Source: Macrostomum lignano
Lineage: Eukaryota
Assembly: GCA_002269645.1 (NCBI GenBank)
Contig: NIVC01000319.1
Location: 372,001-436,000, forward strand
DNA length: 64,000 bases
Direction: 5' to 3'
Below, piece by piece: positions 21,433 through 43,287 of the stretch. The notes below the pieces were generated by a model. It had not been told where the DNA came from. It ran no database searches and was given only the letters and a program-made list of their open reading frames with translations. Each line of letters opens with the position of its first letter. Within the stretch, counting starts at the first letter, position 1. Made by a program: the position numbers and the translations under genes.

Positions 21433-21997
21433 GTCAGGTTAATATAGTGTCAGGTGGATATAGTGTCAGATGGATATACATGTAGTGTCAGATAGATATA
21501 GTGTCAGATGGATAGAGTCAGCTTGTGAGCGTACGAAGGACTTTATTAGGAGCAGAGAATTTTTCCATTAAAAAAGTAAGCAGACAGAGAAATTGGGATG
21601 AGCACGATTTTGTAATTCCAGCTCCCAAAAGTGCTGCTCCAACGAGGCGCAGAAATCTCCCAGTCCCGGAGGATCAGTGCGGGCTCAGGTAGGGGATCAC
21701 TCAGCCAAAAAAACAATTCATAATTCAGTTTGCTGAGCCACCAGAAGCCACAGCTTGCGTGACGCACTTGCTGCATGTCTCAGGCCGTTTTTAGGGCCGG
21801 AGACCCCACGGACCTCTGCGGCCTCAGAACTGAATTTTAGAAGTTTGCCGCAGCTGCTGTCACCAAGGCGGGTCAATCCCATCAGTTTGGGGAGGCTTGA
21901 ATCCTTAATCCATAAAATTTCAGCGAGCGGCTGGCTCGGCGCCAGGGACTTGCCGTATCTGTCAGCCTGTCTATCATCTGATCACTACTCTAGACCG

Positions 21998-23002
21998 ACT
22001 CCTCTTCTCTCCTTCTCTCCCTTCTCTGCCTTCTCTCCCCTTCTCTCCCCTTCTCTCCCTTCTCTCCCTTCTCTCCCCTTCTCTATCCTTCTCTCCCTTC
22101 TCTCCCTTCTCTTCCCTCCTCTCCCTTCTCTCCCCTTCTCTCCCCTTCTCTATCCTTCTCTCCCTTCTCTCCCTTCTCTTCCCTCCTCTCCCTTCTCTCC
22201 CCTTCTCTCCCCTTCTCTACCCTTCTCTACCCTTCTCTTCCATTCTCGCCCTTCTCTCCCTTCTCTGCCGTTCTCTACCCTTCTCTCCCTTCTCTCCCTT
22301 CTCTCCCCTTCTCTCCCTTCTCTCCCTTCTCTCCCCTTCTCTCCCCTTCTCTCCCTTCTCTCCCCTTCTCTATCCTTCTCTCCCTCCTCTCCCTTCTCTC
22401 CCCTTCTCTCCCCTTCTCTATCCTTCTCTCCTTTCTCTCCCTTCTCTCCCCTTCTCTCCCCTTCTCTCCCCTTCTCTATCCTTCTCTCCCTTCTCTTCCT
22501 TCTCTCCCCTTCTCTCCCCTTCTCTACCCTTCTCTACCCTTCTCTCCCTTCTCTCCCCTTCTCTCCCCTTCTCTACCCTTCTCTTCCCTTCTCTCCCTTC
22601 TCTCCCCTTCTCTCCCCTTCTCTCCCTTCTCTCCCTTCTCTCCCCTTCTCTATCCTTCTCTCCCTTCTCTCCCTTCTCTTCCCTCCTCTCCCTTCTCTCC
22701 CCTTCTCTCCCCTTCTCTATCCTTCTCTCCCTTCTCTCCCTTCTCTTCCCTCCTCTCCCTTCTCTCCCTTCTCTCCCCTTCTCTCCCTTCTCTACCCTTC
22801 TCTACCCTTCTCTTCCATTCTCGCCCTTCTCTCCCTTCTCTGCCGTTCTCTACCCTTCTCTCCCTTCTCTCCCTTCTCTGCCCTTCTCTACCCTTCTCTT
22901 CCCTTCTCTTCCCTTCTCTATCCTTCTCTCCCTTCTCTCCCCTTCTCTACCCTTCTCTACCCTTCTCTACCCTTCTCTCCCCTTCTCTACCCTTCTCTCC
23001 CC
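21998..23002. repeat. CT-rich (polypyrimidine) degenerate satellite
   Basis: About 1 kb of cttctctccc-like units. Confidence 0.97.
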
Positions 23003-23484
23003 TATAGTATCCGTTCTCTTACTTGCCACTAGAAATTCTCAAATAATTGCTGGGCGAAACAGAACCCCCCCTTGTTTTCAGCTGCCAGCCGGTTTCTTGA
23101 CCGCCTGACTGATTGATTAACAACAGCTCTCGAACGGGAAGACCCCCCAGTCCTTTGCTGTCAGCTGTTTAAACGGATCGGCAATCAAGCGGAGAGAGCG
23201 GCAGGACCGGCCGGCAGTAGCGCGGCTTTTTTAATTGGACGCACTGGCCGACGCCACACTCAGCGCGCACTTTTTCGCCGACTTTCTGATTCCTGCGTCG
23301 ATCGTTTTTCTTTTACTGCTTTCGGGAAGCTCCGCAGATCAGAGAGTCTCTCGGTGGATCGATAAATTGATTTTTAATAAAACACTCGCAGTGCACACAA
23401 ATTGTTCCTTTTTGGGGCTTTTGCACTCGAGAATAACTTTTGCACCGGAAAGAATGAAATCCAATCGCAAAAAAATAAACTCAC

Positions 23485-23606
23485 TCGTCAAGCAGGCCGG
23501 AGCTGGCGGAGGCTGCGCCCGGCATCATCATCTCGCCGGAGTCGTCGCTGTCCTCGCTAGCCTGCTTTCGGACCACATCCCGGATGAGACTCTGCATGGC
23601 TGACAT
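23485..23606 (-). CDS. Candidate alternative first Hv exon E
   Basis: Reads MSAMQSLIRDVVRKQASEDSDDSGEMMMPGAASASSGLLD and ends GAC GA|GTGAGT (phase 2); 122 nt = 40 codons + 2. Same LLD(E/D) ending as exon D. Too short for the ORF track. Confidence 0.55.
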
Positions 23607-23650
23607 CCTTGAGCCTGCAGTACACACTCTTGGCTTCCAACTCGAAGTGT

Positions 23651-24318
23651 CCTCGGATCGCCCTGAAGATTTGCTTGTTTACCGGATCTGCCCTCGGCTC
23701 GCCCTGAAGATTTGCTTGTTTACCGGATCTGCCCTCGGCTCGCCCTGAAGATTTGCTTGTTTACCGGATCTGCCCTCGGATCGCCCTGAAGATTTGCTTG
23801 TTTACCGGATCTGCCCTCGGCTCGCCCTGAAGATTTGCTTGTTTACCGGATCTGCCCTCGGATCGCCCTGAAGATTTGCTTGTTTACCGGATCTGCCCTC
23901 GGCTCGCCCTGAAGATTTGCTTGTTTACCGGATCTGCCCTCGGATCGCCCTGAAGATTTGCTTGTTTACCGGATCTGCCCTCGGCTCGCCCTGAAGATTT
24001 GCTTGTTTACCGGATCTGCCCTCGGATCGCCCTGAAGATTTGCTTGTTTACCGGATCTGCCCTCGGCTCGCCCTGAAGATTTGCTTGTTTACCGGATCTG
24101 CCCTCGGATCGCCCTGAAGATTTGCTTGTTTACCGGATCTGCCCTCGGATCGCCCTGAAGATTTGCTTGTTTACCGGATCTGCCCTCGGCTCGCACTGAA
24201 GATTTGCTTGTTTACCGGATCTGCCCTCGGATCGCCCTGAAGATTTGCTTGTTTACCGGATCTGCCCTCGGCTCGCCCTGAAGATTTGCTTGTTTACCGG
24301 ATCTGCCCTCGGCTCGCA
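23651..24318. repeat. 41-bp minisatellite, ~16 copies
   Basis: Unit cctcgg(a/c)tcgccctgaagatttgcttgtttaccggatctgc. Confidence 0.98.
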
Positions 24319-25656
24319 CTATTTTTTATCTCTCTGATTTGCCGCACAAATCTCGACAGCCCCAACCCAATGCGCCGATTTGAGACTGGAGAGCTCCGAC
24401 GAGTGCCCGACTTGAGAGCAGATGAGATTAGTCCTTCAGTACAAATCAAAGCTGGCGACCAGGAACGCGTGTCGCCGGACGAACCCCTGAGGGACTCGTT
24501 AAAATAAACCAGAGCTTGGCCTTGGCCTGTTAGAGTGAGCCACGAGCGGGAGAAAAGGATGGGGAGACTGACAGAGCCGCGGAGAATGGCGAGAATTTGC
24601 ACCCACCCACCCCATGGCTGTGACGGCCTGCATCATCAACGATTGGAAGCTGGCGATTGGGGAGGCTAACGGGGCGCGTTGCCAAGCGGCCTAGCAACCA
24701 TCGTATCCTCCATTCACTGTCTGTTTTTGAGGGTGGAGACGGGGCAATGCCGACCGAAAGTAGTGATGAAGTACCCCCGCTTGACAACAGCCAGAGAGAG
24801 GCTGCTTCGACTTCTGAGAGCTCAAAGCATCGGCCAAATATGGCAAGTGAGTAGTTCGGCATTGAGCAGCCACTCTCGCACGAATTGAATTTGATGGACC
24901 GCCTGCTTCGCTGCGGCACAATGGGGCAATCATGATGAGGCCTGGCATGGGTTGGAGTGCACGCTCGATAAATTTATTAAAGACGAGTCTTTCAGGAAGT
25001 TGTCTCGCCAGCCGGTGAGGAGGTAATTTTCAGTTTTCCCTCTGCATGTTGGCTGTAGCGGTGAGCGATAGTCGATCGCACAAGCTGCACTCCGATCAAC
25101 TGCCGCGACGGTGAAATCGAGCCCGGGACCCTCTGAGTCATTTTTGCGTGGATGCCAAGTACTGACTGGATGAAACTCAAAAAATTTCCGTCACCAAACG
25201 ATTTTATTTTAATTAGATATCATTAAATCTCCGGCATCTAAATATGGATATGGATAGCAACTGCCGCGGGCGGTCAGTGAGCTCCCAACGATGGATCTGT
25301 AATAAGATCGGCCTAATTAACTTCAAAGGACGCAAATGCAAAATAACGCAAATTAGTGTTTTTGAAGCCACTGCATGGATTCTGGCACTGCCTCAGGGTA
25401 AAACTACGAGGGTCAAGAGAGCCAGCATAAATTAAAGCATTTGGCGTATTACATGCAATGGTCCGATTATAGAAGCAGCGAGTGTAATTACTATTAATCC
25501 AAAGTTACCGTTAATACGAGCATATCCCAAAGGTCAGCAATGCTGTCAAACGCTTAATTATCTTCCTTACGTGCTGTTTGCACAAGAAAACATAGGATTG
25601 TATGGCACTACTGTCAGTAAGACATTAAGCATACTGAATTTGAAAAAGTTTGAGTT

Positions 25657-26295
25657 TAAGCATCTGGGAGAGCAGCAGTCTGAGCATCTGGGAGAGCAGC
25701 AGTCTGAGCATCTGGGAGAGCAGCAGTCTGAGCATCTGGGAGAGCAGCAGTCTGAGCATCTGGGAGAGCAGCAGTCTGAGCATCTGGGAGAGCAGCAGTC
25801 TGAGCATCTGGGAGAGCAGCAGTCTGAGCATCTGGTAGAGCAATCAGCAGTCTAAGCATCTGGGAGAGCAGCAGTCTGAGCATCTGGGAGAGCAGTCAGC
25901 AGTCTGAGCATCTGGGAGAGCAGTCAGCAGTCTGAGCATCTGGGAGAGCAATCAGCAGTCTGAGCATCTGGGAGAGCAATCAGCAGTCTGAGCATCTGGG
26001 AGAGCAGCAGTCTGAGCATCTGGGAGAGCAGCAGTCTGAGCATCTGGTAGAGCAGTCAGCAGTCTGAGCATCTGGTAGAGCAGTCAGCAGTCTGAGCATC
26101 TGGGAGAGCAGCAGTCAGCATCTGGGAGAGCAGCAGTCTGAGCATCTGGGAGAGCAGCAGTCTGAGCATCTGGTAGAGCAGTCAGCAGTCTGAGCATCTG
26201 GTAGAGCAGTCAGCAGTCTGAGCATCTGGGAGAGCAGCAGTCAGCATCTGGGAGAGCAGCAGTCTGAGCATCTGGGAGAGCAGCAGTCTGAGCAG
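25657..26295. repeat. 24-bp minisatellite (GAGCATCTGGGAGAGCAGCAGTCT)n
   Basis: Tandem array with 28-bp variants. Confidence 0.97.
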
Positions 26296-26569
26296 CCGGG
26301 AGTCTTCAGTCTTCCTTTCTTCCAGTCTTCCATGCTAGTCTTCTGCTAGTCTTGCTGTGCTTCTGTCATCCGGTCTACATTTCTGAGCAAGTCTGCCACC
26401 CTGCCCCTTCTCCGCGACACTGCGTGGCGACCTGTCAGACAGGGAATGCAATCAGTGTTTTGCATGTGTTGGTTTTTGGTTTGTTGAATTATAAGGAACC
26501 ATTGCAGAACGCAACCCAGACAACGTTGGATTCTGTGAGCCTCATAAACATAGGTATCGTACTTTGACG

Positions 26570-27235
26570 GGGGGAGAGGGGAACAGGGGTAGAGGGGGCG
26601 AGAGAGAGAGGATCGAAGAGAGAGGGGGAGAGAGGAGATTGGTGAAAAGAGAGAGGGAAGAGAGAGGAAGAGAGGGGGAGAGAGGAGAGAGGGGAGAGTT
26701 GACAGGTGACAGAAAGGAAGAGAGGGGGAGAGAGGAGAGTTGGGAGAGTTGACAGGTGAGAGAAAGGAAGAGAGGGGAGAAGGGCAGGGCAGGGGGCAGG
26801 GCAGGACAGGGTAGGACAGGGCAGGGCAGGGCAGGGCAGGGCAGGGCAGGGCAGGGCAGGGCAGGGCAGGGCAGGGCAGGGCAGGGCAGGGCAGGGCAGG
26901 GCAGGGCAGGGCAGGGCAGGGCAGGGCAGGGCAGGGCAGGGCAGGGCAGGGCAGGGCAGGGCAGGGCAGGGCAGGGCAGGGCAGGGCAGGGCAGGGCAGG
27001 GCAGGGCAGGGCAGGGCAGGGCAGGGCAGGGCAGGGCAGGGCAGGGCAGGGCAGGGCAGGGCAGGGCAGGGCAGGGCAGGGCAGGGCAGGGCAGGGCAGG
27101 GCAGGGCAGGGCAGGCAGGGCAGGGCAGGGCAGGGCAGGGCAGGGCAGGGCAGGGCAGGGCAGGGCAGGGCAGGGCAGGGCAGGGCAGGGCAGGGCAGGG
27201 CAGGGCAGGGCAGGGCAGGGCAGGGCAGGGCAGGC
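26570..27235. repeat. AG-rich tract followed by (GGGCA)n, ~90 copies
   Basis: Purine-rich tract, then a pentamer array. Confidence 0.98.
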
Positions 27236-27454
27236 ATAGAATTCTAGATAAAACTTAACTTATGCAATGGTTAGGCCTAGTAGAGCCATTTGATTTTTTT
27301 AATCTTAGGCCAAGGTCCTAAGCTAGTCTAAACCTTATTTTAGTAAAACTTATTCTTAGACCCTTTGCCTCTAATTAGGGCCTAACAGTAACAACTGGTA
27401 ACTGGCTAATTCTAGCCAAGCCTATCTACAAAAAGTCAACATGCATGCATGCAT

Positions 27455-28018: not shown

Positions 28019-29020
28019 TGAGGTGGGGGCGAAGAAAAGGAGAAAAAAATAATTTATTTAATTTGAATATCTTTGTGTTTGAAATCGGTCGGTTGCTTAC
28101 ACCAATTTAAGGTGGGGCGGTTCAACTTTGAATTGTCGTCTGCGTTGTCTCGGCACTCGTAAAGCCGGAAAATTTCACGAACTGATGCGTTTAGCTTCTC
28201 CGTTGATACTCCGTCTGCCGGGTCCTCAATTCCGGGGGGGGGGGTAGTCGTAATTCGCAGTCGAGCAGTCTTTTAACGGCACGGTCGTTCAATTGGGTCT
28301 TCAGACGCCGTAAATTTTGTATCTGTCGATATGCTCGGTTTGTTAACTATCAGTAGTAAAGTAGCGCTGCCACCACCGTAATTTCGTATTACGGAACGTT
28401 AAGGGCCTCAGAGCTTTCTTTGAGATGAGACTAATTGGTTGTTTTACGCCCCGCGGCAAATGACTCAATAGAAACTAAAGGCTTCGATTAGGAACGAGTG
28501 AATAAATATTGTCGTCACTTCTTATTATTTAACACTGGATAGGCACTAGTTAAACAAATTACTAAGAATTACTAAAGTATTATTATTAATTATTAATTCG
28601 CTACAAGAGTAGATTCGGCGGTGCCGAGAGAAATTAATGAAATAAATTGGGGTTATGCACTGAGCAAATGAGAGATTAGCTACGGTCCAGAACAGAACCA
28701 GAACAAAAGGGGGGTTGAAAACTGAAACTAAACACGCAAGAATTTATACGCAGAACTCGGCTAATTCCCGGGAGTGGGACACAAGGGGGAACACCGGGTG
28801 GAACACACGAGGGAAAAAGGAATAAAACCGGCGGTGGTTACGTGGCAAAACACGTTAAAACAAGGATGCGACCAGGGAAAGGACCAGCCGGGGGAACAAT
28901 GGTGGGAGCAACCGGGGGAACGGGAAACATCAATCAAAGGAACACAGTTAGGTTACGTCAAGCAGTCCACCGATGGGAGGCGTTGCGTTGCTGCCAACTG
29001 CAACTGCCTGCCGAACCCCA
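28019..29020 (-). mobile_element. Solo LTR of a family related to the adjacent gypsy element
   Basis: TGAGGTGGGG...ACCCCA termini, ~1.0 kb. Blocks such as gctgccaccaccgtaattt..gtattacggaacg..ctcagagctttctttgagatgaga and gcaaatgactcaata are shared with the 29199 LTR. Flanks gcaat/gtagt do not form a perfect TSD. Confidence 0.75.
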
Positions 29021-29198
29021 GTAGTCCCGATACTTTTGAAATTTTGAGCATGCAAATAATCAAATTTTCTTTAAAATGGATGAAATAGTTGCGTTCTTTT
29101 ACAGAAAGTTATGATCAAAACTTCACTTTTTGGTCAATGATGCTGAAATAGTAAATTTTTTCTTTTTTAAAACTAGTTTTTAGAACTTTTTAAAATAT

Positions 29199-30237
29199 TG
29201 AGGTGGGGCGGAGAAGAATCTTTTGGAAGTTCTGAGTTTTGAAAATTTGTTGACACCAGTGAGGTGGGGGTAGAGAAGATTTAAACTCCTGGGTTGAGGG
29301 TCGGCCGAAATTCTTCGAAACCGGTGGCGTTGCGTTCGCACGAATAAAACCGGAAAAATCGCGCAGATGAATCACAACGGAATTTCTTCTCCTTTTCTCC
29401 GACTGCCGGGTTCTCAAGTCCGGGGGGAGGGTAGTCGTAATCGTAGCAGAGCGGTCGTTTAGCGGCTCGGGTCGTTCAAAGGGATGAAACACCGGAGATT
29501 TCTGGCTCCGTAAATTAATGCGTCGATGTGTTGAACTGGTTACTTTCAGTAGGGTAGTTGCTGCCACCACCGTAATTTACGTATTACGGAACGGATAAGT
29601 CTCAGAGCTTTCTTTGAGATGAGAACTTGGTTATTTTACGCCCCACGGGCAAATGACTCAATAAATGCTATGGCTTATGTCAGCAGATTAAATATGATTC
29701 GGAATAATGGTTTATGGGCTTGGTTTATTAATAATAATGCAGGCTTATGATTAGTAATTTTGATTTTTCAGACGACTGAGATGTTCACGGGCGCCGGTGC
29801 GCTAAATAAACTTAAAAAAAAACGAAAATTAGATTAAGGAAATAGGGGGTCGAAAACCAAAAAGGGGAAGGGTGGGGAGAAAGGTTAGAAAACAACTCAT
29901 CGTGCGCAGATTATAAATAAAGAGAGAATTACATGCACATCGTTTGGAAGTTAAACTGGACAGGCCGATGGAGCAAAGTTTCAATGCGTGGAAACTTTGG
30001 GTGGACGGCTTGCCGCAGAGGAAAAGGGAGAAAAATTTTAACAAAATCCACCGCAAGGGAGCGCGTTTTAGCACCCAGTGGAAACTAAAACAGTGGCTGG
30101 ACGGCCACTTGACGGAAAATGATGCGCCAGAAATTCACTAGATGGATACGAAAGTAAAAAAAAATTAATGTTTATTGGGCATGCAACTTAGCGTAATTGT
30201 TTGATTAAGTGTTCATCAGTGGCACTCGACTGCCACA
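29199..30237 (-). repeat. 3' LTR
   Basis: Near-identical to 42249-43287. By eye there are 3 substitutions (29298/42348, 30018/43068, 30201/43251) and 2 G-run indels. Confidence 0.96.
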
Positions 30238-30267
30238 TGCGCGGGGTGGCCGGAGGGTTGCGCAGAG

Positions 30268-31847
30268 TTAGCAGCAGCCGCTGCTTCCTTGGCCACCGCG
30301 GCGTCCGCGTCCGGCAGCTCGGCCGCCTCGGTTGGCCGGGTGGTCTCCTCGAGCAGGATGCTCGGGGTCGGCGTTCCTCGCCGTTCTGGGCCGGTCGCTA
30401 GCTGAGCTGGCCGCCGGGGGCCAGCCATGTATTTGTACGTGACCGTCGACGATGTGGAGGCGCTCAGGGTATTTCTCTATCGCACAGTCCCAGAAAGCTC
30501 GTAGGCGCGGAAACCAGCCGCCTTCTAGGTGGCCAGCTTCAAAATAGGCCAACGCCAGAAGTAGAGCCAGGGCCGGGCGGAATTGGGTCGGTCTCAGGCG
30601 GAACAGTTCCTCGGCCCGTGTTAACTGCTCGTCCAGTAAGTCTTTCGTCGCCGCCGGAGGCATCAGGACACAGAGCCGGCGCCAGGGGGCATCAATTTGT
30701 ACCCGCCCCTTCTGGGCGGCGAGGTCGAAAGCGTCGAATAAAACTTTGCGCAGGCGTAGGCGCGCCGGTGTTGCGCCGGCCGTGGCGGAATTCCAAACTC
30801 GCAGCTTGGCCGCCTCATCAGGGCGAAGCCATGGGTAGGGATTCCAATCCCGGGATCCCGGGATCCCGGGATCCCGGGATTGGGGCCAAAAATCCGGGAT
30901 TTGAATCCCGGGATTTTTTTGGGAATCGAATCCCGGGATTTTTAATCCCGGGATTGCAAAAGTCCGGGATCGGGATCCCGGGATTTCAAGGCCTTAATCC
31001 CGGGATTGGTCCGGGATTAGAACAACCTTTCAATGCCTAAATTAGATAATTTAAAGTCTAAACGTTTATTTGAATAATAAAACATTTATTTGTTTTTGCT
31101 GTTTCTCAATGAAACGCTAAACATTTGCAAAGCTCCTGTCCTAATTGATCTAAAAATTGTTAATGTGAACTGTAAATGATAGATAATTTTAACTTTTTTC
31201 GTTTTCCACCACGAGACGAGACTGAGGGCCTTTTCATAGTGCTTGTTCTGGTTCCAGAAGCAGAACCAATTTGTGAAGTATAACTTTTTGTCTCCATAAC
31301 TATAGGGAGATACGTGCTATAAAGTTTTTATTATTGAATGACAGTCGCCAAAAAGAAAGTGAAAAATCGTGCAAAGTGAGGCTGTTAAGGCAGTCAAATA
31401 TTAACAGAGTTTAATAGTTATACTGCTGTTTTTCTTGGAATTCCGAACCGATTCTGGTTCTGGAATTGGTAACATGAAAAGGCCCTGAGACTCTGAGAGT
31501 CGCGAGACCATGACTACTGCACGCGGCACGCCGCACAGTCCGTCTTAGGATTCCAATCCCGGGATCCCGGGATCCCGGGATTGGGGCCAAAAATCCGGGA
31601 TTTGAATCCCGGGATTTTTTTTGGAATCGAATCCCGGGATTTTTAATCCCGGGATTGCAAAAGCACCGGGATTCCGGGATTTTGAATCCCGGGATTTCAA
31701 CAGCATCGGGATTTCGGGACTATTCAATCCCGGGATTGTAAAATGTCGGGATTTTGGAATCCCTAGCCATGGGGCGCGCTGCAGGGTCGCTTGAAGCTCG
31801 GGCGCTTGCAGAGCGGGCGGCTCCTGAGGTGCCGTTCCTTCCAACAT
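30268..31847 (-). pseudogene. Third (accessory) ORF of the retroelement, 213 aa after removing the MITE; function unknown
   Basis: Removing 30836-31765 plus one TSD (938 bp) leaves 642 nt in one open frame: MLEGTAPQEPPALQAPELQATLQRAPW|LRPDEAAKLRVWNS...LMPPAATKDLL...KYPERLHIVDGHVQIHGW...GCC*. Confidence 0.7.
30836..31765. mobile_element. Non-autonomous hAT (Ac-type TAGGG ends) MITE, 930 bp
   Basis: TIR TAGGGATTCCAA / TTGGAATCCCTA, 8-bp TSD GCCATGGG (30828-35, 31766-73), many palindromic ATCCCGGGAT subterminal motifs. Confidence 0.92.
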
Positions 31848-32436: not shown

Positions 32437-35344
32437 CAGGGGCGGGCAAACTTTTTAGAGAGTGGGCCAAATAATACTTTCGTTGAACAGCCGCGGGCCG
32501 GAGCTCAATAACGAGGCAACTTTCTTGGTAGATAGAAATACAGTTTAGTTTATTTGCTTATCAAGCTTTTAATAGTATGTTTCATTACAATTAGTGAAAT
32601 ACATGTATCATTGAATATGCAGATATTTGCTTTATATAAAGCCGAATTAACAAATGAGAAGTTTAAGTAAAAATGACGTTTAAAAAATTACGTAACTGCT
32701 CTTACATCCGATGGCAATAACATCAGCGCTGATGAAAAAGTTATTAGTTACTTGCTATAGATGATACAGTTGATATTTAATGAAGGAAAATAGTACTAGC
32801 AATAGAAAAAATGGACAATAAAAAGTGACATTGACAGGGAATTATAATAGGAAAGATACAAAAAGAAATACATTGACAAAATGCTCGAACAATGATGGGC
32901 AGTGATAGCATGCCGTTAGAGGAGATATTAGTGACAAATTTTGGTTGACAGACATGCCCAATCTACAGTCTGTTAGCAGAAATTCAGTCATTTGAACTTA
33001 ATGAGATGGGTGGTACTGTCTGCCCTGAAGAAGTGCTTCAAAATCCGGCTTGATAGACGAAGTAGACAGCAGAAGGATATCATTAAGATGGCGGTCTGAA
33101 ATCTGGGAACGAAGGCGAGATTTGGTGAAGCTCATTTTGGAAAACAGCTGTTCGCAGCAATAGGTGCTCCCAAACATGGCCACAATACGTTGAACATGGG
33201 CGATGTAGTTTGGAAAGTTGTTGGATGGGAGAACAAGGTCCCGAAAGAAGGCTAGAGGGGAGGAAGTGCGGAACTTTGCCTTCAGTCCATCGTTGTACTG
33301 CAGCTCAACCAACTCCATCTGCAGGGCAGCTGGGGCATCATCCACCGAGCAGTCAAAGGGAGCAGTGAGGAGCTTGAAGTCCACAGCCAGGCGTCTGACT
33401 CCTGCAAAGCGGGAGGCAAACTCCTCCCGCAGAGAAGCCACAACCCCTGCGCAAGTGACCAGGTCCACGTCATCTGGGGCACAGGCAGCAAGACGAGGAA
33501 AGTGCACAAACTGACCAGCAGTCAGCTGAGCCTCCCACAAGCGTAGCTTGACCTCGAATGCAGTGATCTCAGCGTGCATGTCCGTCACAAGAATTTCTTG
33601 GCCTTGAAGTTTTATATTGAGGGCATTCAGGTGTGCAGTGACATCAGTCAGCAGGGCCAGGCGAGCAAGCCATTTTGGGTCAGAAAAGCAGTCCGCATGG
33701 GGCAGATTCTTCTGGCGCAAAAATGTGACAATCTCCTGCTGCAGGTCACACACACGAGAAAGCATGGCCCCACGGCTCAGCCAGCGGACTTCGCAGAAGT
33801 AGAGCAGGTCTCCATATTGCGTATTCACATCGTCCACTAGAGTCTGGAACTGGCGATGGTTGAGGCTGCTAGAGAGGATGGAGTTGACAACTTTCACCAC
33901 AATCGACATGACATCAGCAAGTTTGGCAGACTTGGCGCACAGGGCCTCCTGATGAATAATGCAATGCATCTTTTGTATTGGCTGGGTATGGCCGGCAGCC
34001 TCACAGTGATGCACTAGGAGTGATGCGGCGCCTTTCCTCTCTCCAGTCATTGCTGGGGCACCATCGGTCGTCACACACACAAGGCGAGAAAGATCAAGTG
34101 AGTGCTGCTCAACACACTGAAGCACAGCATCAAAGATGTCCTTGCCAGTGGTGGTGCCATGCAGTGGGACAAGCTGCAGAAACTCCTCGTGAATCTTGAG
34201 GTCAAAAGTGACTCCTCGGATAAAAATGGCCAGCTGGGCTGTATCTTTCATGTCAGTGCTCTCGTCAAGAGCTAGGGAGAAGGCAACTAGATCAGAGCAG
34301 CAGGTCTTCAGCAAGTCGTGCACATTGTCCGACATCTCCTCAATGCGCCGTCGAACAGTACGGGATGAGAGGCTCACGCTCTCAAAAGCAGAACGCTGTT
34401 CTGGACAGACAGAGTTCACCACAGTCACAAGGCACTCCTTGATGAAGTCCCCATCCGAGAAAGGCTTCATCCGGCAAGCTAGTAGATGGGAGACCTCGTA
34501 GCTTGCACGAGTCACCTTGTCGGCCTCAGTGGTCTGCTTGCGGAAGAGCAAAGTCGTCTTCTGCAGGTTGCCAGACAGCTTTGTGATAGCTTCTTTCTTC
34601 TTATCAGCAGGCATTGAAGCATAGGCTGATGTTTGGTGATTAGTTTCCCAGTGGCGACGCACATTGAATTCTTTAAGGACGGCCACAATCTTAAAACAGA
34701 TAAGACACTGCGCCTGGCCAAAGCGCTCAACAAAAAAGTACTTCTCCTGCCAATCAGCTTTAAAGGCCCGACACTCGAGATCTACTTTTCTCTTTTTAGC
34801 AGGTTGAGGTGTAGTAGACATGATTAGATAGATAGATGGAAGGCACACTGTGACACTGAGGGAAATTTTATTTTAGGGGAACTTTTAGTTAATAGGCACA
34901 TAAATAAACAGATTCGGGGGGAGGTGGTCTACCAACAGCAGGCTGCAGCCTGCTAAACAATGCAGGGGCCAAACCAACTCTTTTCTCTCTGGATAATATA
35001 ACAATGTCTAAGGCTTGATAGGAAGACTGCTAGAAAGGGGAAGAGAACTTATGGACGTACGCCACGTGCCCAGAGGGAAAGACAGCCAAATTGAGCTTAA
35101 GGTTGGGCACAGCCCATACCTTCGAATCTTAGAATCTGACAATATACTATATAAAGGGAGAGGGGAATAAGTCTTGTTTGCTTATTAGAGTCTAGACTCC
35201 TTAGTAGAGCCTTAGAATCTGGAAAATCTAGTGCCAGACTTATGCGGGCCAGATTTTAATGCAAATGAGAAGCTATGTGGCGGGCCAGAAAATAAAGCCT
35301 CGCGGGCCGGATCTGGCCCGCGGGCCGGAGTTTGCCCGCCCTAG
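32437..35344 (-). mobile_element. Autonomous hAT DNA transposon, Buster/SPIN type (2908 bp)
   Basis: 16-bp TIRs CAGGGGCGGGCAAACT / CTAGGGCGGGCAAACT (2 mismatches), perfect 8-bp TSD CCTTACAA with central TA (32429-36, 35345-52), and GCGGGCC subterminal motifs. Confidence 0.96.
32998..34821 (-). CDS. hAT transposase (Buster/SPIN, GTF2IRD2/EPM2AIP1-like), 607 aa from first ATG, uninterrupted
   Basis: NLS PAKKRKV; BED-like CLIC..HWETNH; catalytic ALDESTD, TTDGAPAM and STYCCEQLFS; CIIH motif; EVRWLSRG. Confidence 0.95.
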   Translation of the reverse strand: MSTTPQPAKKRKVDLECRAFKADWQEKYFFVERFGQAQCLICFKIVAVLKEFNVRRHWETNHQTSAYASMPADKKKEAITKLSGNLQKTTLLFRKQTTEADKVTRASYEVSHLLACRMKPFSDGDFIKECLVTVVNSVCPEQRSAFESVSLSSRTVRRRIEEMSDNVHDLLKTCCSDLVAFSLALDESTDMKDTAQLAIFIRGVTFDLKIHEEFLQLVPLHGTTTGKDIFDAVLQCVEQHSLDLSRLVCVTTDGAPAMTGERKGAASLLVHHCEAAGHTQPIQKMHCIIHQEALCAKSAKLADVMSIVVKVVNSILSSSLNHRQFQTLVDDVNTQYGDLLYFCEVRWLSRGAMLSRVCDLQQEIVTFLRQKNLPHADCFSDPKWLARLALLTDVTAHLNALNIKLQGQEILVTDMHAEITAFEVKLRLWEAQLTAGQFVHFPRLAACAPDDVDLVTCAGVVASLREEFASRFAGVRRLAVDFKLLTAPFDCSVDDAPAALQMELVELQYNDGLKAKFRTSSPLAFFRDLVLPSNNFPNYIAHVQRIVAMFGSTYCCEQLFSKMSFTKSRLRSQISDRHLNDILLLSTSSIKPDFEALLQGRQYHPSH

Positions 35345-35869
35345 CCTTACAACATTCCCAGGCTCGAGCAAAATCGAACAAAGAGCAGGGGTCGAGTCAC
35401 CTTAAATGCCTTCCACTGAGGACAAGGCCTAGAACAGGGGCGCTTGACCTGAGCGGGCAGAAGACAGTTTGGCCCTTAGACAGTGGGCTTACAAACCGGA
35501 AGGAAAATTAAAATACCTACAGTTTAATCAAACTGTAAGGTGTACAAATTCACTGCTTTCCTGAAAGCATTAGAAAAGGGGGGGGCACTTCTGCACTTTG
35601 AACGTGTGCGAAGAAGCTTACAGCAACAGGGATGCGCAAAATTTAGATGAAAAGAGGAAACGCAAAATAAAGCAATGATCTTACTGTATCGCATTGTTTA
35701 ATGAGGACGCGTTGATTAAATATTGTCGCATTGGTGCGTGCTTTTCACCGCAAAGCGTAAGGAAATTTACAGAGCGCATGGTGCTGATTAATGAATTCGC
35801 ATTTAATAAAATTAGCAAAGTTTTACGCTATACATGAGCACCGGAAACTATGCACTGCTTTTACCGGAA

Positions 35870-36110
35870 AGCATAAGGAAAAGAGAAACTGCTTTTAACC
35901 CTGAAGCATAAGGAAAAGTACATTGGAACGACGCCTGCTTTTATCCTGAAAGCATAAGGAAAATGGCAAAATGAAACTGCTTTTAACCCTGAAGCATAAG
36001 GAAAAGTACATTGGAACGACGCCTGCTTTTATCCTGAAAGCATAAGGAAAATGGCAAAATGAAACTGCTTTTAACCCTGAAGCATAAGGAAAAGTACATT
36101 GAATTTAAAC
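35870..36110. repeat. 88-bp dimeric tandem repeat in the retroelement's post-pol non-coding region
   Basis: gcataaggaaaa recurs at 35906/35994/36082 and 35952/36040. Confidence 0.85.
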
Positions 36111-36265: not shown

Positions 36266-39200
36266 TCAGATCTCGAGCTCCATACCGATGTCAGGCAGAT
36301 CCGGGTCGCCTTCAGACAGCACTTCCGGATGGCGGAGGCTCGGCTCGAACAATTGGCTGCCGCGCAGGTCAGGCTGAGCTGCGACTGGCTGTTCTGGAGC
36401 GGGCTGATCGGCTGGGTCGACTTCGCTTTCATCGCTCGACTCGTAGGGCAACATTGGCCGCTCTGTCTGGCGCGGCGGCTCCTGCGGTCGATCTGCCATC
36501 ATCTGCGGCACCTTTATGATGTTGTTGCGGTGTACGAGCATTTCAGCTGGGCGTTCCCGTCGGGCTGTTGCTGGCTGGATCCAGTAGGCTACTTCGCCGA
36601 CCCTCCTGTTGACCTTGTACATGCTTTTGTACGGCCGGTGAAACTTCGGCAGCTCGCCCAACTCGAGCTTCGGGTTGGCCAGGCAAACCAGGTCTCCGGG
36701 CTGCAGTTCCACGGGCTTGGGTCGGTTCTCGTAGTACTCTTCACGGCGTTGGATCTCAGCTCGCAATCGCTGTCGCACAATCCTTTCAGTCTCGGCCAGT
36801 CTACGCTGATGCTTTGCGATGTACTCGGGGAGGTCCGGCGATACGTCCAGGCGGTCTAGGGTGTTATCGATCGGATACCGGTAGGGCACTCCGTAGATGA
36901 CGTAATGCGGCGAGAATCCCGTCGTACGATTGACAGCTGATCGCAAGGCTGTCAGAGCGGCTGGCAACATCTTGTCCCACTGTTGATGATCTTCGAGAAG
37001 ACAAGTGAGCACCTTCTTGATGTTTTTGTTGCACGATTCAGCTTGACCGTTGGCCCAGGGCGAGTATGGCGGCGTCGTTGTCTGCCGGATGCCATAGACT
37101 TCGCAGAAATGTCGAAACTCGTGCCCTGTGAACTGTTTGCCTTGGTCCGAATGGATCCACGCGGGGATTCCGGTGATCGGGAAGACTTGCTCTTGCAGGA
37201 GAGTTATTATCGTCTTGGCGCGCTGATTCTTCATGGCGAAGGCGAAGGGGTACTTTGACGTCGTGTCGACGTAGGTGAGGATGTACTTGTTGCCTCGGTC
37301 TGTCGGGTCTCCAGTGGGGCCCATGATGTCGATCGCACATCGCCCATAGATTTCGCAGACCGGAAATGATTGTACATGCGCTGGGATGCGTCGCCGTCCT
37401 TTACTCTGAGTGCAGGTCTGGCAGGAAGCGACATAGTCGGACACGGCCTTGGCCAGGGCCGGTCGCCAGAACCTCTCGCGCACCTTTGCGATGGTGAGAT
37501 CTCGGCCCATGTGTCCGCAGTAGGGCGAACCATGCAGGTCGGCAAACACTGTGGCGTCGAGACTCTTCGGCAGGACGATCCTCGCATTGTCCTCCTCGCC
37601 AACATCGTCGAGATGGATGACTAATAGTCCGTCGTCTCGGACTTCCAATTGCTCATAGAATGCTAAGAGATTTCGCTCATCTCTTGTTAGATTTAATCGC
37701 TGATTCAGCGGCGGCTTCGGTTGTCGACTTTCAATTAAGTTGATCATCATCGCGATGGCGGAGTCAGCACGCTGATGGGTCTGGAGCTCCTCACGTGTGA
37801 CTGGTCTCGGGATGTGATCAGTTAAGTTCAAAGTTTGGCGTCTGTTAGTCGAATTAGTCGGCGCGGCTTCGGCTGTGGCGGCATGGTTCGGGGTCTGGAG
37901 CTCCCTCCGCATAATCGCTACTCTGGCCGGTTGCCGGGTCGATGAAGAATTTGAGGGCCGATCCTCGTCGGTCATGTCAGCGTCGGCTTCGTCAGCATTA
38001 GATTCGTCAGCAGATGAGAGTGAGTCAGCGGAACTGTCGGTATCAAGGCTGAATCTCACCTTCTTGAACACAGGACGGCGAGCGGGTTGGCAGCGGTCTT
38101 CGTTGGCTGCGCTGTGGTCGCTATCCTCGTCGCCTTCAGCTAGTAGCCGGCGGCCCCTTGACGGGCAACATGTCGTGCTGCTAAAACTGGTGGGCGACCT
38201 CTGTGAGTCCCAATAACGACTGGCAGATGGCCTCGACTTCGTCGCCGGCGGATGCAGCTCTGTCAGCGGCTTGCTGTCGGCTGTCGGTGTTGCGGGCGGC
38301 GTAGTCTCGCCGTTGGACTCAGTTGATTTCGTCGGCGGCTTTCGTCGGTGACGGCGGGTCGGTCGCTTCTTGCTCGGTGGAGGACTAGGGTGGCTGCTGT
38401 CGTGGACCTTCGGCGCCGCTGCGCCAGTTATCGCGGCTGGCTGCTTACTTTGGTCCTCGACGGCGGCCTCTCGCTGAGCCTCCTCCAAACATTCAGCGTC
38501 GTCCTCAGGCCGTCTTGAGAGGCCGTCGGCGTTTTGGTGCTGACTTGATTTTCGATGCTGGATCTCGAACTCGAATTCGCTGAGGCGCTGTAGCCATCGT
38601 CCAAAGATTCCTTCTTGCTGAGTTCGCCTCAGGATGCAGGTTAATGCGGCATGGTCGGTTCGGCAGATGAACTTCTTGGCCAGCAGGTAGAATCTGAAGT
38701 GTCGCATTCCATCTACGACTGCCAAGAGTTCCTGTTTCGTAATCGGATAACGGGCTTCGGCCGGTTTGAGTCGCCGGGAGAAATAGCCGATTGGTCGCTC
38801 TACTCCATCAGCTTGGCGTTGGCTCAGGCAGGCTCCGATTCTGGTCGCAGAAGCATCCGTATCCAGGATAAACATTACTTCCGGATCCTCGCTGAACTGC
38901 GGATACGCGAGCACTGATGTCGAAGTCATGGCTGCTTTGAGCTGATCAAACGCGTCTTGCTGGGCTTTTCCCCATAGACAATTGAAATTTCTAATCTTCT
39001 TTTCCTTGATTAGGTCGTGGAGCGGAGCTGCAAGTTCTGCGTAGCCAGGTACGAATTTAGCATAGTAAGCGCACGTGCAGACAAAACTCTTAAGCTGTCG
39101 GGCTGTTCTTGGTCTTGGCCAGGTTTGAATAGCTTCGATTTTCGCCGGGTCGGTCTTGATTCCATCTTTGGTTACTACGTGTCCCAGGTAGTGGAGGCTT

Positions 39201-40273
39201 GCCCGAAATAAATGGCACTTCTTGCCTTTGAACTTTAGATTAGCTTCTTGGACTCTCTTAAATACTTCTTCCATATGCCGTAGGTGGTCGTTAAATTTCT
39301 TAGAATAGACGATTACGTCATCCAGGTAAGCGATAGCACTTTTGTAGGCAATCCCGTTGAGCACAGCGTTCATGAGGCGCATGAAGCTGGCTGGAGCTGA
39401 ACTTAACCCCATTGGCATAACATTGTAGGCGAACTGTCCGCGGTGCAGCGTGGCAAAGGCAGTCAGGTCTTGATCTTCCGGACGCAGAGGAATCTGATAG
39501 TAGCCGCTATTCAAATCGAATGCACTAAATAGCTGGCTTTCTTCGAGGCTGGCGAATGCTTCTTGAATATTAGGAATCGGGTACGGAAAATACTCGCACT
39601 TTTGATTCAGACTCCGGAAATCTCGTACAATTCTTAGGCTGCCGTCCTTCTTCGGGATGATCACCAGCGGGGTGTTGTAGCTGGAGAAGCTCGGTCGAAT
39701 CACGCCTTTGGCCAGCAGATCGTCGAGTAACTGGTCCACCTTGGGTAGCAGGTGCGGCGGGATCCTTCGCGTTGGGAGATGCACCGGATCTTTGTCCTTC
39801 AGTACGATGTTGTGGGTGACCAGATGAGTTCGGCCGAGATCGTGTGGCCCCTGCGAGAAGATGGTCTGGTACTTTCTCAATAGCTCGATGACTTGAGCGC
39901 GCTGGTCCCTGGACAGATCCTCGCTGATATCGATCTCCTTAATCCAAGCATCGGGATCCTCGTCTTGGATTTGATTGACAGAGTCTTCTGATTTCAGCAG
40001 CGGGAAGAAATGTAGCTCGGGCAGTCTGATTGGTCTAGCAATCCCGACTAGGGCATTCGCTCGCACTTTGATGGCTGTAGTGCCACGGTTGATCATTTCG
40101 ATAGCGCCTTCTCCATTAGCCATGGAAATCAGGGCAGGCGCGGCGTCCAAGTGCTGCACATCTTCTTCGCGACGAGCCGGTTTCAGCGGCTTGATCACGG
40201 CGGGTGTACCCTGGTTTTCTTCTCGTCCTTTGGCTAATTTGATTTTAATTCGGGCAGATGATAACGGCGGCAC
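36266..40273 (-). CDS. pol: reverse transcriptase, RNase H, long linker, integrase
   Basis: RT motifs DFRSLN, YYQIPL and YLDD; RNase H LDTDAS and CRTDH; integrase zinc finger (H..H..CQTC); core IDIMG/HSDQG/AES; C-terminal GPY/F-like KFHRPYKSMYKV. Confidence 0.95.
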   Translation of the reverse strand: MPPLSSARIKIKLAKGREENQGTPAVIKPLKPARREEDVQHLDAAPALISMANGEGAIEMINRGTTAIKVRANALVGIARPIRLPELHFFPLLKSEDSVNQIQDEDPDAWIKEIDISEDLSRDQRAQVIELLRKYQTIFSQGPHDLGRTHLVTHNIVLKDKDPVHLPTRRIPPHLLPKVDQLLDDLLAKGVIRPSFSSYNTPLVIIPKKDGSLRIVRDFRSLNQKCEYFPYPIPNIQEAFASLEESQLFSAFDLNSGYYQIPLRPEDQDLTAFATLHRGQFAYNVMPMGLSSAPASFMRLMNAVLNGIAYKSAIAYLDDVIVYSKKFNDHLRHMEEVFKRVQEANLKFKGKKCHLFRASLHYLGHVVTKDGIKTDPAKIEAIQTWPRPRTARQLKSFVCTCAYYAKFVPGYAELAAPLHDLIKEKKIRNFNCLWGKAQQDAFDQLKAAMTSTSVLAYPQFSEDPEVMFILDTDASATRIGACLSQRQADGVERPIGYFSRRLKPAEARYPITKQELLAVVDGMRHFRFYLLAKKFICRTDHAALTCILRRTQQEGIFGRWLQRLSEFEFEIQHRKSSQHQNADGLSRRPEDDAECLEEAQREAAVEDQSKQPAAITGAAAPKVHDSSHPSPPPSKKRPTRRHRRKPPTKSTESNGETTPPATPTADSKPLTELHPPATKSRPSASRYWDSQRSPTSFSSTTCCPSRGRRLLAEGDEDSDHSAANEDRCQPARRPVFKKVRFSLDTDSSADSLSSADESNADEADADMTDEDRPSNSSSTRQPARVAIMRRELQTPNHAATAEAAPTNSTNRRQTLNLTDHIPRPVTREELQTHQRADSAIAMMINLIESRQPKPPLNQRLNLTRDERNLLAFYEQLEVRDDGLLVIHLDDVGEEDNARIVLPKSLDATVFADLHGSPYCGHMGRDLTIAKVRERFWRPALAKAVSDYVASCQTCTQSKGRRRIPAHVQSFPVCEIYGRCAIDIMGPTGDPTDRGNKYILTYVDTTSKYPFAFAMKNQRAKTIITLLQEQVFPITGIPAWIHSDQGKQFTGHEFRHFCEVYGIRQTTTPPYSPWANGQAESCNKNIKKVLTCLLEDHQQWDKMLPAALTALRSAVNRTTGFSPHYVIYGVPYRYPIDNTLDRLDVSPDLPEYIAKHQRRLAETERIVRQRLRAEIQRREEYYENRPKPVELQPGDLVCLANPKLELGELPKFHRPYKSMYKVNRRVGEVAYWIQPATARRERPAEMLVHRNNIIKVPQMMADRPQEPPRQTERPMLPYESSDESEVDPADQPAPEQPVAAQPDLRGSQLFEPSLRHPEVLSEGDPDLPDIGMELEI

Positions 40274-40282
40274 AGTTGTGCT

Positions 40283-40852
40283 CTAGGCCGTGTAGATTCT
40301 GCACGTTGTAGCTTCAGTTCGCGTGTAGCGTAGCGGTGCGGCTGTGCCGTCCTTGAAAAACAGCATTCCGGCGGCGAGGTCCAGTGATGTGCTGTACTTC
40401 TCCAGGAACTCGAAGCCCAGAATGTTGTCATGCGATCCTTTCGCTAGCAGAAACTTGACTGTAGGCTCAAAATTACCAATCTTCACTTTGATGGATAGTT
40501 CTCCTGCCATCTGAATTGGTTCACCATTGTAGGTCACAATGCGCTGAAGGCAGGGCTTGATTTGGCCACGCAGGGTCGGGTCGTCAGTACATAGGCGGTG
40601 CCAGGTGCTGAATCCTAGGACTTCACACTTGGACCCGGTATCAAGCAAGAAAGCAAAATAGCGGCCTTGAATCTCACCAGTTAAAAACGGATCTCTCCGA
40701 GGTCGCTTGGGTGCAGAATTCTGTACAGGTGCGGCGGAGGCTGTCTCAGCAGTGGCCTGCTGAGCGACTAAAGTCCTCGGCGGGGACTTCAGTGCTGGCG
40801 CGGCTGCTGGATGGCGCTGCCCCCGATGGCGCGTCCAGCCGTCCCGTTTCCC
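40283..40852 (-). CDS. Aspartic protease (-1 frame relative to gag), separated from RT by an in-frame TAG
   Basis: FLLDTGS and NILGFEFL motifs. TAG at 40283-85 is in frame with pol (YTA*STTVPP). Confidence 0.9.
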   Translation of the reverse strand, partial: GKRDGWTRHRGQRHPAAAPALKSPPRTLVAQQATAETASAAPVQNSAPKRPRRDPFLTGEIQGRYFAFLLDTGSKCEVLGFSTWHRLCTDDPTLRGQIKPCLQRIVTYNGEPIQMAGELSIKVKIGNFEPTVKFLLAKGSHDNILGFEFLEKYSTSLDLAAGMLFFKDGTAAPLRYTRTEATTCRIYTA

Positions 40853-42180
40853 GAGCTGCCGTTGCGCTGGGACGCGGTGCTGGCCGACCGCCGGTGCGGG
40901 CACTCATCGGCACGATGCTCGCGATTGCACCTGTAACACATGGCATTCTGCCGTCGCAACTGGTAAGGCGGCGGCCTTGAACTCGGCTGCTGCTGCTGCT
41001 GCTGCTGCTGCTGACGTGGACCTCCTGCTGGCGGCGTTCTCGGCGGCGGGTTGCTGCCGTCTCGTGGTTGCTGAAGTCGATGGAACGGTTGCTGTGGCAC
41101 CATTCGCGTGCCGGGTGTCGTAAATTGGGCGCTTCCGTCAGCGCTGCGGCGAGGAGTCGAGGGTACCAGACATCTGGAGCGTTGGCCCCACGAGTCCCGC
41201 GGCTGGTGGCGAGGCTCCAATGGCTCCGGGGTGTCGTTGTCGCGCGATCCCCGTGAGTAGAATTCTCGCATCTCGTTACTCAATGTCTCCAGTAGGCGTC
41301 GCTGCTCCTGCAGAGTTTCGGCTTGTTGTTCCATCACTTCACGCAACCAGTTCTCCTCGGGCCGAGATGACTTGTCGTGTTGCACCACAGTGGGCGTCTG
41401 ACCATTGTCATCTTCGAGGACCCGGACATGTCTCGCTGCTGGCGGCGGTGCTACTCGCTGAGCCAGACTAGCTGCTGTCTCCAAGCGTAGCACGGCCCGT
41501 CTCGCTGCGGTCAGATTCTGCGGTCGCACCAGGATTAGCTGTTCTCTCGCCGACTGAGCAATCCGCACTCCCACTGTGAACTGATCCACCAGTTCAGCCT
41601 GCTTCTAAACCGGGGTAAAATGCGGAAATGCTCTATCGGCCAGAGCAATTAGTCGATCGCCATAGTCGTCAACGCTCTCGTTCTTGCCTTGCTGGCAGCT
41701 TCGGAACTGCTCCCGGTACTCCAGCGTGTCGGCCACATGCGTAAAACGTTCAGACAATCGCTGTTTGAACTCACCAAACGTTAGATTATCTGGCAGCTCC
41801 ATCCTGACGACTGCGGGATAGGTGGTGGCGATGTCCAGATTCACGAGGACCTCCGCCTTCTTGCGTCTGTCGTCTGTGATCCCGTTGAGCTCGCAACGCT
41901 CTTCCAGAGCCTGGATCCAGACGTCGAATTCCTGGTTCTGCGTATACCGCTGAATCTTGACCGGTTTCGGCGCTGGAGCTCGATCCTGCTGCTGGGGCTG
42001 CTGGTACACATGATGATGGTGTTGCGGCTGGCCCAGGCTGGTCTGCTCCAGTCGCCGGCGCAACTCTTCGGTCACCGCGCGAATCATCTCGTCGTAGGTC
42101 GGTCTTGTCGTTGAGTTGTCGGGGCCCGCGGCGTTGGCTGTCGCGTCCGCGGTCGTTGAATTAGTATTAGTTGAAGCCAT
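40789..42180 (-). pseudogene. gag (463 codons from ATG 42180) with internal in-frame TAG at 41605-07
   Basis: Capsid-like QGKNESVDDYGDRLIALADRAF; zinc knuckle CYRCNREHRADEC (CX2CX3HX4C). The two track ORFs are in the same frame across PHFTPV*KQAELVDQF. Confidence 0.87.
40846..40852 (-). promoter_or_regulatory. -1 ribosomal frameshift slippery site G GGA AAC with downstream GC-rich hairpin
   Basis: Gag frame TCG GGA AAC, PR frame GGG AAA CGG. About 4 nt downstream is CGGCTGGA...TCCAGCAGCCG, which can pair. Confidence 0.72.
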
Positions 42181-42229: not shown

Positions 42230-42247
42230 ATCCCACCGCTGCCACCA
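42230..42247 (-). promoter_or_regulatory. Primer-binding site complementary to the tRNA-Leu 3' end
   Basis: TGGTGGCAGCGGTGGGAT, 1 nt from the 5' LTR. Its complement ATCCCACCGCTGCCACCA is the conserved eukaryotic tRNA-Leu 3' end. Confidence 0.85.
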
Positions 42248-42248
42248 A

Positions 42249-43287
42249 TGAGGTGGGGCGGAGAAGAATCTTTTGGAAGTTCTGAGTTTTGAAAATTTGT
42301 TGACACCAGTGAGGTGGGGGTAGAGAAGATTTAAACTCCTGGGTTGACGGTCGGCCGAAATTCTTCGAAACCGGTGGCGTTGCGTTCGCACGAATAAAAC
42401 CGGAAAAATCGCGCAGATGAATCACAACGGAATTTCTTCTCCTTTTCTCCGACTGCCGGGTTCTCAAGTCCGGGGGAGGGTAGTCGTAATCGTAGCAGAG
42501 CGGTCGTTTAGCGGCTCGGGTCGTTCAAAGGGATGAAACACCGGAGATTTCTGGCTCCGTAAATTAATGCGTCGATGTGTTGAACTGGTTACTTTCAGTA
42601 GGGTAGTTGCTGCCACCACCGTAATTTACGTATTACGGAACGGATAAGTCTCAGAGCTTTCTTTGAGATGAGAACTTGGTTATTTTACGCCCCACGGGCA
42701 AATGACTCAATAAATGCTATGGCTTATGTCAGCAGATTAAATATGATTCGGAATAATGGTTTATGGGCTTGGTTTATTAATAATAATGCAGGCTTATGAT
42801 TAGTAATTTTGATTTTTCAGACGACTGAGATGTTCACGGGCGCCGGTGCGCTAAATAAACTTAAAAAAAAACGAAAATTAGATTAAGGAAATAGGGGGTC
42901 GAAAACCAAAAAGGGGAAGGGTGGGGGAGAAAGGTTAGAAAACAACTCATCGTGCGCAGATTATAAATAAAGAGAGAATTACATGCACATCGTTTGGAAG
43001 TTAAACTGGACAGGCCGATGGAGCAAAGTTTCAATGCGTGGAAACTTTGGGTGGACGGCTTGCCGCAAAGGAAAAGGGAGAAAAATTTTAACAAAATCCA
43101 CCGCAAGGGAGCGCGTTTTAGCACCCAGTGGAAACTAAAACAGTGGCTGGACGGCCACTTGACGGAAAATGATGCGCCAGAAATTCACTAGATGGATACG
43201 AAAGTAAAAAAAAATTAATGTTTATTGGGCATGCAACTTAGCGTAATTGTGTGATTAAGTGTTCATCAGTGGCACTCGACTGCCACA
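42249..43287 (-). repeat. 5' LTR
   Basis: Direct repeat of 29199-30237, adjacent to the PBS. Confidence 0.96.

Follow-up and report, generated by a model that had tools for sequence, protein, structure and literature searches.

Two alternative accessory genes in the slot between pol and the 3' LTR of a gypsy retrotransposon family in Macrostomum lignano

A gypsy retrotransposon of the flatworm Macrostomum lignano carries, between pol and its 3' LTR, an open reading frame split by a MITE, and it raises the question of what this third gene is and how it is kept across the family. The window, the whole stretch of DNA that we analysed, comprises 64,000 nucleotides (contig NIVC01000319.1, positions 372,001 to 436,000 of the forward strand); positions below are those of the window unless a locus is named. 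The element and its nested insertions are laid out as follows.

42249..43287, minus strand: 5' LTR (TG...CA), 1039 bp, 99.5% identical to the 3' LTR
42230..42247, minus strand: primer binding site, TGG at its start, one base past the LTR
40789..42180, minus strand: gag (Pfam Retrotrans_gag, E 1e-4)
36266..40903, minus strand: pol (PR-RT-RNaseH-INT, from Pfam domains), overlapping the end of gag in another frame
35740..36089, minus strand: hairpin-like motif of ~24 nt, repeated as 7 units in an array directly 3' of pol, a candidate RNA element
32437..35344, unstranded: nested hAT DNA transposon (8-bp target duplication; Pfam)
32998-34872, minus strand: transposase frame inside the nested hAT element
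31766..31847, minus strand: 5' piece of ORF3-A, 27 codons plus 1 base, including one copy of the 8-bp duplication
30836..31765, unstranded: MITE, 930 bp, with a hAT-type 8-bp duplication and a 10-bp terminal inverted repeat
30419..30835, minus strand: remainder of the A-specific helical core of ORF3-A (from alignment, predicted structure and A/B maps)
30268..30418, minus strand: Arg/Gly-rich tail, in a frame common to the B-type partners C392 and C422 (from the A/B comparison)
30238..30267, minus strand: C-rich stretch, with no polypurine tract, at the site where one is expected
29199..30237, minus strand: 3' LTR, pairing with the 5' LTR

The assignment to Ty3/gypsy agrees with the PR-RT-RNaseH-INT order downstream of gag (Pfam) and with the TG...CA LTRs, target duplication and primer binding site, all of which are present; the names of the reverse transcriptase homologues do not point to a named clade such as Mag, CsRN1, Gmr1/Osvaldo or Mdg3/Micropia. 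The two LTRs differ by 3 mismatches and 2 gaps, the 4-bp target duplication (ATAT) lies at 43288-43291 and 29195-29198, and the primer binding site presumably matches tRNA-Leu. Both gag and pol contain one nonsense codon (41605-41607 and 40283-40285, respectively) private to the window copy, since 28/28 and 30/30 of the other copies aligned at these sites are open. The window copy is therefore dead, and because both stops are private we reject programmed read-through. A conserved C-rich stretch ending in GCA precedes the 3' LTR in the window and in 38 other copies. No polypurine tract was found before the 3' LTR, the last 15 nt containing 6-7 purines in 13 of 14 copies and 10 in the remaining one; a hairpin in its place was unsupported (z -2.1 to +1.0, 14 copies). 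The Gag zinc knuckle (40900-40990) has the spacing CX2CX3HX4C, the usual one being CX2CX4HX4C. The 2.9-kb hAT element has a 600-aa transposase frame with a Spin-doc zinc finger and a hAT dimerisation domain, and a loose contig end in another sequencing run suggests that this insertion exists there too.

The sequence-only reading of this locus had proposed that excising the 930-bp MITE with one duplication restores a 213-aa stop-free frame in the env position on the gag-pol strand, and a natural MITE-free copy bears this out. The 8-mers flanking the MITE (30828-30835 and 31766-31773) are identical, and the two pieces of ORF3-A, both stop-free, are in register: 82 + 560 nt make 214 codons, or 213 aa and a stop, running from an ATG at 31847 to a stop at 30268-30270. 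In the MITE-free copy (L013) the pieces are contiguous and the 8-mer single, each window piece separately being 97.7-97.8% identical to it. The restored frame is on the strand of gag-pol, as proposed, and ends 30 nt short of the 3' LTR. The MITE itself is a young, abundant element, with family copies 93-100% identical (40 scored, from 1591 first-look candidates) and 8-bp duplications at 5/5 other insertions checked. Contigs of one run guessed to be RNA and of one other run span both junctions of the A arrangement with the MITE absent, which shows that this arrangement exists beyond the assembly and makes no statement on transcription; in these data, contigs only, no leader-to-ORF3 splice joint is listed. 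Run X1 has a loose end before the LTR at L013 position 9201, which we take to resemble the worm's spliced-leader sequence; if so, run X1 would be RNA and some insertion would be trans-spliced.

That the window's ORF3, here gene A, is a real accessory ORF we regard as nearly certain. In the genome, 137 candidates from a protein search were scored and 115 of them matched, at 40-95% identity and often stop-free, and in 48 larger loci that we mapped gene A mostly follows the gypsy family's own integrase and precedes an LTR. In the alignment, ~140 residues form a conserved core, whereas the basic tail varies. The frame is intact in MITE-free copies, and neutral evolution or loss was not seen: five pairs that we chose gave dN/dS of 0.08-0.15 in the core (Fisher p below 1e-11), with an integrase control at 0.02-0.03 in 3 pairs, and all 26 usable values out of 153 pairs were below 1, 125 pairs being saturated. 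The AlphaFold model (mean pLDDT 68) has a helical core of good local confidence and a disordered tail, in keeping with the globular-looking core that had been proposed; the short hydrophobic stretch noted earlier is modelled as one helix of this globular domain. Across 17 A cores, the strongest 19-residue hydropathy window scored 1.06 at the median and 1.62 at most. We saw no signal peptide in ORF3, judging by eye, and gene A showed no homology to viral fusion proteins in Pfam, viral folds or PDB folds. The matches, the purifying selection, the hydropathy and the absence of a family or fold match all agree with the proposal of an uncharacterised accessory gene that is not an envelope.

The sequence-only reading treated ORF3 as a single gene, and this did not hold. 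Two close copies of the element (C392 and C422) match the window copy only in the tail and LTR, and have a different ORF of 258 aa in the slot; gene A is thus one of two alternative occupants. We refer to the second as gene B (82 matches among 108 scored). It begins with ~110 acidic, proline-rich residues (10 of 11 N-termini having a net charge between -9 and -21), a domain that A lacks, and continues into a confidently predicted core of five helices (pLDDT 84.5) whose strongest hydropathy window has a median of 1.06 and a maximum of 1.73. Its core is likewise conserved, with dN/dS of 0.07-0.37 in 6 pairs and 13/13 usable values below 1, out of 105 pairs of which the others were mostly saturated. 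The Arg/Gly-rich basic tail described earlier is present, 28 of 33 intact ORFs having an RG motif within their last 32 aa, so that an arginine-rich basic motif is there, but it is not peculiar to gene A, since B-type partners share it.

Neither gene has a recognisable relative outside the family. Pfam gave no match below E 0.02 and solved-structure sequences none below E 0.39 for A or B, the ESM Atlas had no usable match to either core, and word-based searches found no relative of B or of the longer A relatives; for B, Foldseek and VIA also revealed none. The structure check suggested earlier, AlphaFold followed by Foldseek, returned no known fold, Foldseek being empty at E 0.001. The best VIA scores (Z 7.5 for A, 9.0 for B) are generic, and so, within the range of helical bundles, are those obtained when Translin/TRAX (C3PO) and CID domains were tested: Z 8.8 for B with 3zc0 (rmsd 2.9, 97 aligned) and Z 7.4 for A with 5mdt (rmsd 3.1, 95 aligned). 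The DnaJ domain of the gypsy clade with a J-domain ORF3 had no Pfam match in 17 A cores, 21 B cores and 4 longer sequences. A 26-residue match to a viral contig was taken as chance. Capture of a host or viral gene, one origin raised by the sequence-only reading, is unsupported because the sole two relatives among 1.84 billion proteins belong to the same family; public sources assign both to Macrostomum lignano.

Alignment of A-type with B-type copies clearly shows how sharply the two genes replace one another. Up to the start codon the closest partners have 93-99% identity, and the cores that follow are unalignable. In seven mapped pairs the stretch with this identity takes in the 5' LTR, gag-pol and the 1.5-kb spacer, which one A copy lacks; from the tail into the 3' LTR the identity is 90-97% in six pairs and 80% in one. 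Copies C195 (A) and C1081 (B), for example, are 98.6% identical over 7.8 kb, unalignable over ~0.55-0.75 kb and 96.9% identical thereafter. Of 12 pairs inspected, 10 have shared blocks that stop within ~50 bases of the start codon and restart close to where the core ends; the breakpoints hug the core, their exact positions varying by tens of bases, and no motif for site-specific recombination was found at the cassette edges in the 12 pairs. The partner copies that we checked are separate insertions with differing flanks, and gag, PR, RT and INT are found in both types.

We examined 139 copies (70 A, 67 B and 2 fused), a subset of all matches picked for their rank and for diversity, leaving out some near-duplicates. 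At a cut-off of 78% nucleotide identity the cores form 25 A lineages and 29 B lineages. For ten of the A lineages there is one distinct B lineage with which both flanks are shared, and these ten pairs comprise 46 of the 70 A copies and 35 of the 67 B copies. The remainder (15 of 25 A lineages and 19 of 29 B lineages, many represented by one old copy) are without a clean one-to-one partner on both flanks in this sample; A23 re-uses B3, and links based on the upstream flank only are many-to-many. Trees of the A cores and of the B cores from 11 pairs have two supported cherries in common and no supported conflict, and the core distances correlate (Mantel rho 0.35, p 0.016); Mantel tests of core against flank are weak (p 0.05-0.27), and both core trees are resolved at the shallower branches only. 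On the integrase tree, 7 of 9 testable A/B pairs are sisters, partly as a result of how pairs were selected. The A/B label changes 16 times on a 49-copy integrase tree, indistinguishable from random (16.6-16.8 when shuffled). The random label and the pairing together suggest that the ORF3 type switches freely with respect to pol while each sub-family keeps an A and a B of its own. To judge from these alignments, sub-families retain both genes across a divergence that saturates synonymous sites. We conclude that selection very probably keeps the dimorphism, which is best read as idiomorph-like.

What could maintain two genes in one slot? Our leading explanation, to which we give a probability of roughly 0.45, is that the two proteins cooperate in trans and that the gypsy family keeps both A and B for this reason. 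We place such complementation first because of an A-B fusion, the tail shared in frame and the one-to-one pairing of lineages. A-type and B-type genomes would be co-packaged and would recombine by template switching, which may homogenise the flanks, where they can be aligned, and leave the unalignable cores as they are. The mating-type idiomorphs of fungi, dissimilar cores within homogenised flanks, offer an analogy. It is established that co-packaged members of a family recombine while they are reverse-transcribed (PMC6894440). The persistence of both types in each sub-family would further require selection for the rarer one, such that a copy with the rarer gene gains and neither type is lost. 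It is tempting to speculate that A and B genomes, each fully coding, supply the two halves of a two-part regulator and so behave as two mating types, a possibility to which we give somewhat less than an even chance. If this were so, the element would thrive only where both types are expressed, enforcing co-packaging and outcrossing, and a sub-family would be a recombining species that carries both idiomorphs through every split.

In the fusion, which is present at C1020, C616 and C2108, a single frame without stops runs through both an A core and a B core. Two of the fused copies (L097:1363-2298 on C1020, and L098 on C616) represent one old locus with decayed gag-pol; they differ at 9 of 880 bases without gaps in the fused ORF, by 3-4% with gaps in the decayed gag-pol, and by 1.6% downstream. 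Because the copies compared come from one old locus and their gag-pol is decayed, the fusion may instead reflect co-option by the host. The fused ORF is annotated as a hypothetical protein.

The array behind pol bears on what the two proteins might do. Counted with a pattern derived from the same sequences, at least two units occur in 54 of 58 elements, always within the pol-ORF3 spacer, and the core of the motif is the same in 11/11 sub-families scanned. Three variants alter both sides of the stem, two break its closing pair, and an alternative stem can form in the commonest units. On this basis the array is a candidate structured RNA response element. The job that we favour for the pair, though at well below even odds, is that of a Rev/CERV-like regulator in which the Arg/Gly tail would bind RNA, probably the hairpin array, and the acidic, proline-rich N-terminus of B would recruit a host factor that exports or protects the genomic RNA. 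Retroviral Rev and Rex are the models for accessory proteins acting on genomic RNA. CERV of the C. elegans element Cer1 is described as a novel gypsy accessory protein for RNA export, made from a spliced mRNA (PMC10309623). Our genes resemble these systems in being novel gypsy accessory proteins, here with a basic motif and a candidate structured cis element; we see no sequence or fold link to those systems, and CERV is one protein (PMC10309623).

An alternative is that A and B define self-limiting immunity groups, each protein restraining copies of its own type, as in copy-number control or superinfection exclusion, so that the rarer type spreads. The swappable immunity regions of phages are analogous. 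This account, which we consider unlikely, would explain a stable, roughly even dimorphism and the free shuffling against pol, and it has a precedent in the self-encoded restriction factor reported for Ty1 (PMC7055915). However, with flanks alike in both types the target would have to sit in the core-coding RNA itself, and neither the A-B fusion nor the tail shared in frame is predicted.

Alternatively, A and B may be counter-defence or trafficking proteins suited to different cell types (testis, ovary, stem cells) or host factors, every sub-family needing both routes over time. The conservation and retention of both genes, and the extra acidic domain of B that is absent from A, are compatible with such a partition of niches. 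We nevertheless doubt it: partners have the LTR and upstream spacer in common, so that like transcription is expected, and frequent recombination between A and B implies co-expression within one cell.

A and B might also be very old paralogues that do the same job, with recombination re-seeding the sub-families. Their predicted cores have a similar five-helix layout, and 16 of the top-50 structural neighbours are common to both, mostly over the same chain ranges, which is what redundant equivalents might look like; the similarity of the profiles is not significant, however (hhalign E 0.31; Z 2.6 at only one of three settings). Re-seeding would also predict many-to-many links, as opposed to one-to-one pairs with matching trees, and drift should have removed one type from small sub-families over a divergence that saturates synonymous sites, which makes redundancy quite improbable. 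An envelope or small fusogen for cell-to-cell spread, for which the position between pol and the 3' LTR is the sole support, is highly improbable, given that most members have no transmembrane-grade segment, the helical models look soluble and no match was found in Pfam for A or B or among viral folds for A, in line with the sequence-only reading.

Complementation in trans also invites comparison with other partnerships among mobile elements. An autonomous and a non-autonomous element of soybean reportedly swap LTRs and bifurcate in parallel; one partner is said to be a parasite without enzymes of its own, with no alternative accessory genes involved. The grass endogenous pararetroviruses ePVCVL and ePVCVL2 are two genome types proposed to complement each other, and as in our family their shared non-coding regions are homogenised by recombination while their coding parts are dissimilar (PMC5491270). 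Unlike A and B types, which both have full gag-pol, those partners are each described there as without a core replication gene (PMC5491270), whereas A and B differ in one accessory core only and the pairing recurs in ten sub-families. Bdelloid rotifer LTR retrotransposons have ORF3s that are not env, and, as we see here, several types occur among related elements and are exchanged as modules (PMC5408684). Those ORF3s, however, encode enzymes of recognisable kinds (a GDSL esterase and a DEDDy exonuclease) that go with particular lineages (PMC5408684); in our family two unclassified genes alternate within each sub-family and have flanks in common. Exchange of a 3' gene by template switching is known from retroviral env swapping, which involves homologous envelope genes under receptor-driven selection (PMC10536682), unlike the fixed two-type, non-envelope system described here. 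The VANC anti-silencing proteins of VANDAL transposons are also encoded by the element, diverge between sub-families and go with non-coding tandem repeats, their targets varying between related elements (PMC5735166), whereas our hairpin motif is conserved across sub-families; VANC belongs to a DNA transposon and has no homology to A or B. Our literature searches, which covered mainly papers outside subscription journals, turned up no account of a system in which alternative accessory genes, two in number, are paired across sub-families of fully coding elements. The word 'ORF' is absent from the main text of a survey of M. lignano LTR elements (PMC12801592), and a term search of the available text of another paper gave no mention of the genus Macrostomum (PMC13524379).

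The usual view of retrotransposon copies is that of selfish individuals, or of a host and its parasite. An accessory locus with two alleles that is stable in ten sub-families, with the remaining genome shuffled, points to selection among copies that cooperate or limit one another. The system offers a pair of new protein domains, together with a candidate RNA element. Since transgenesis has been reported in M. lignano (PMC5730564), these make the upkeep of recombination and cooperation among transposons directly testable.

The slot also tolerates other cargo, as two copies have swapped A/B and the LTR for the module of another family. In these copies (L125:7729-8301 on C3194, and L126 on C305), gag-pol and spacer of the A/B family are joined to the ORF, here type C, and LTR of a distant gypsy family. 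This third cargo is ~191 aa long with 64 matches in the genome, and in the donor family pol often ends in a fused type C domain. The hairpin motif was absent from 13 loci of the donor family, but with only 1.5 kb of flank these are not a fair control.

Several odd copies were seen. Two loci (L094 on C292, L095 on C4115) have an intact A-type ORF, annotated as a gene, with no family integrase within 8 kb upstream, and are possibly domesticated or non-autonomous. Two others (L100 on C4905, L101 on C50) have the A ORF tandemly duplicated ~1.4 kb apart with the second copy broken, and in L086 (C2067) and L021 (C1811) the 1.5-kb spacer is missing and ORF3-A directly follows the integrase. The in-frame stops of broken A and B copies are mostly TAG in the match tables. 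Just outside the gypsy element, the window has a diverged fragment resembling the 3' part of the LTR (28200-28620), and at 18600-27250 it is densely packed with unrelated tandem repeats with periods of 5-41 nt.
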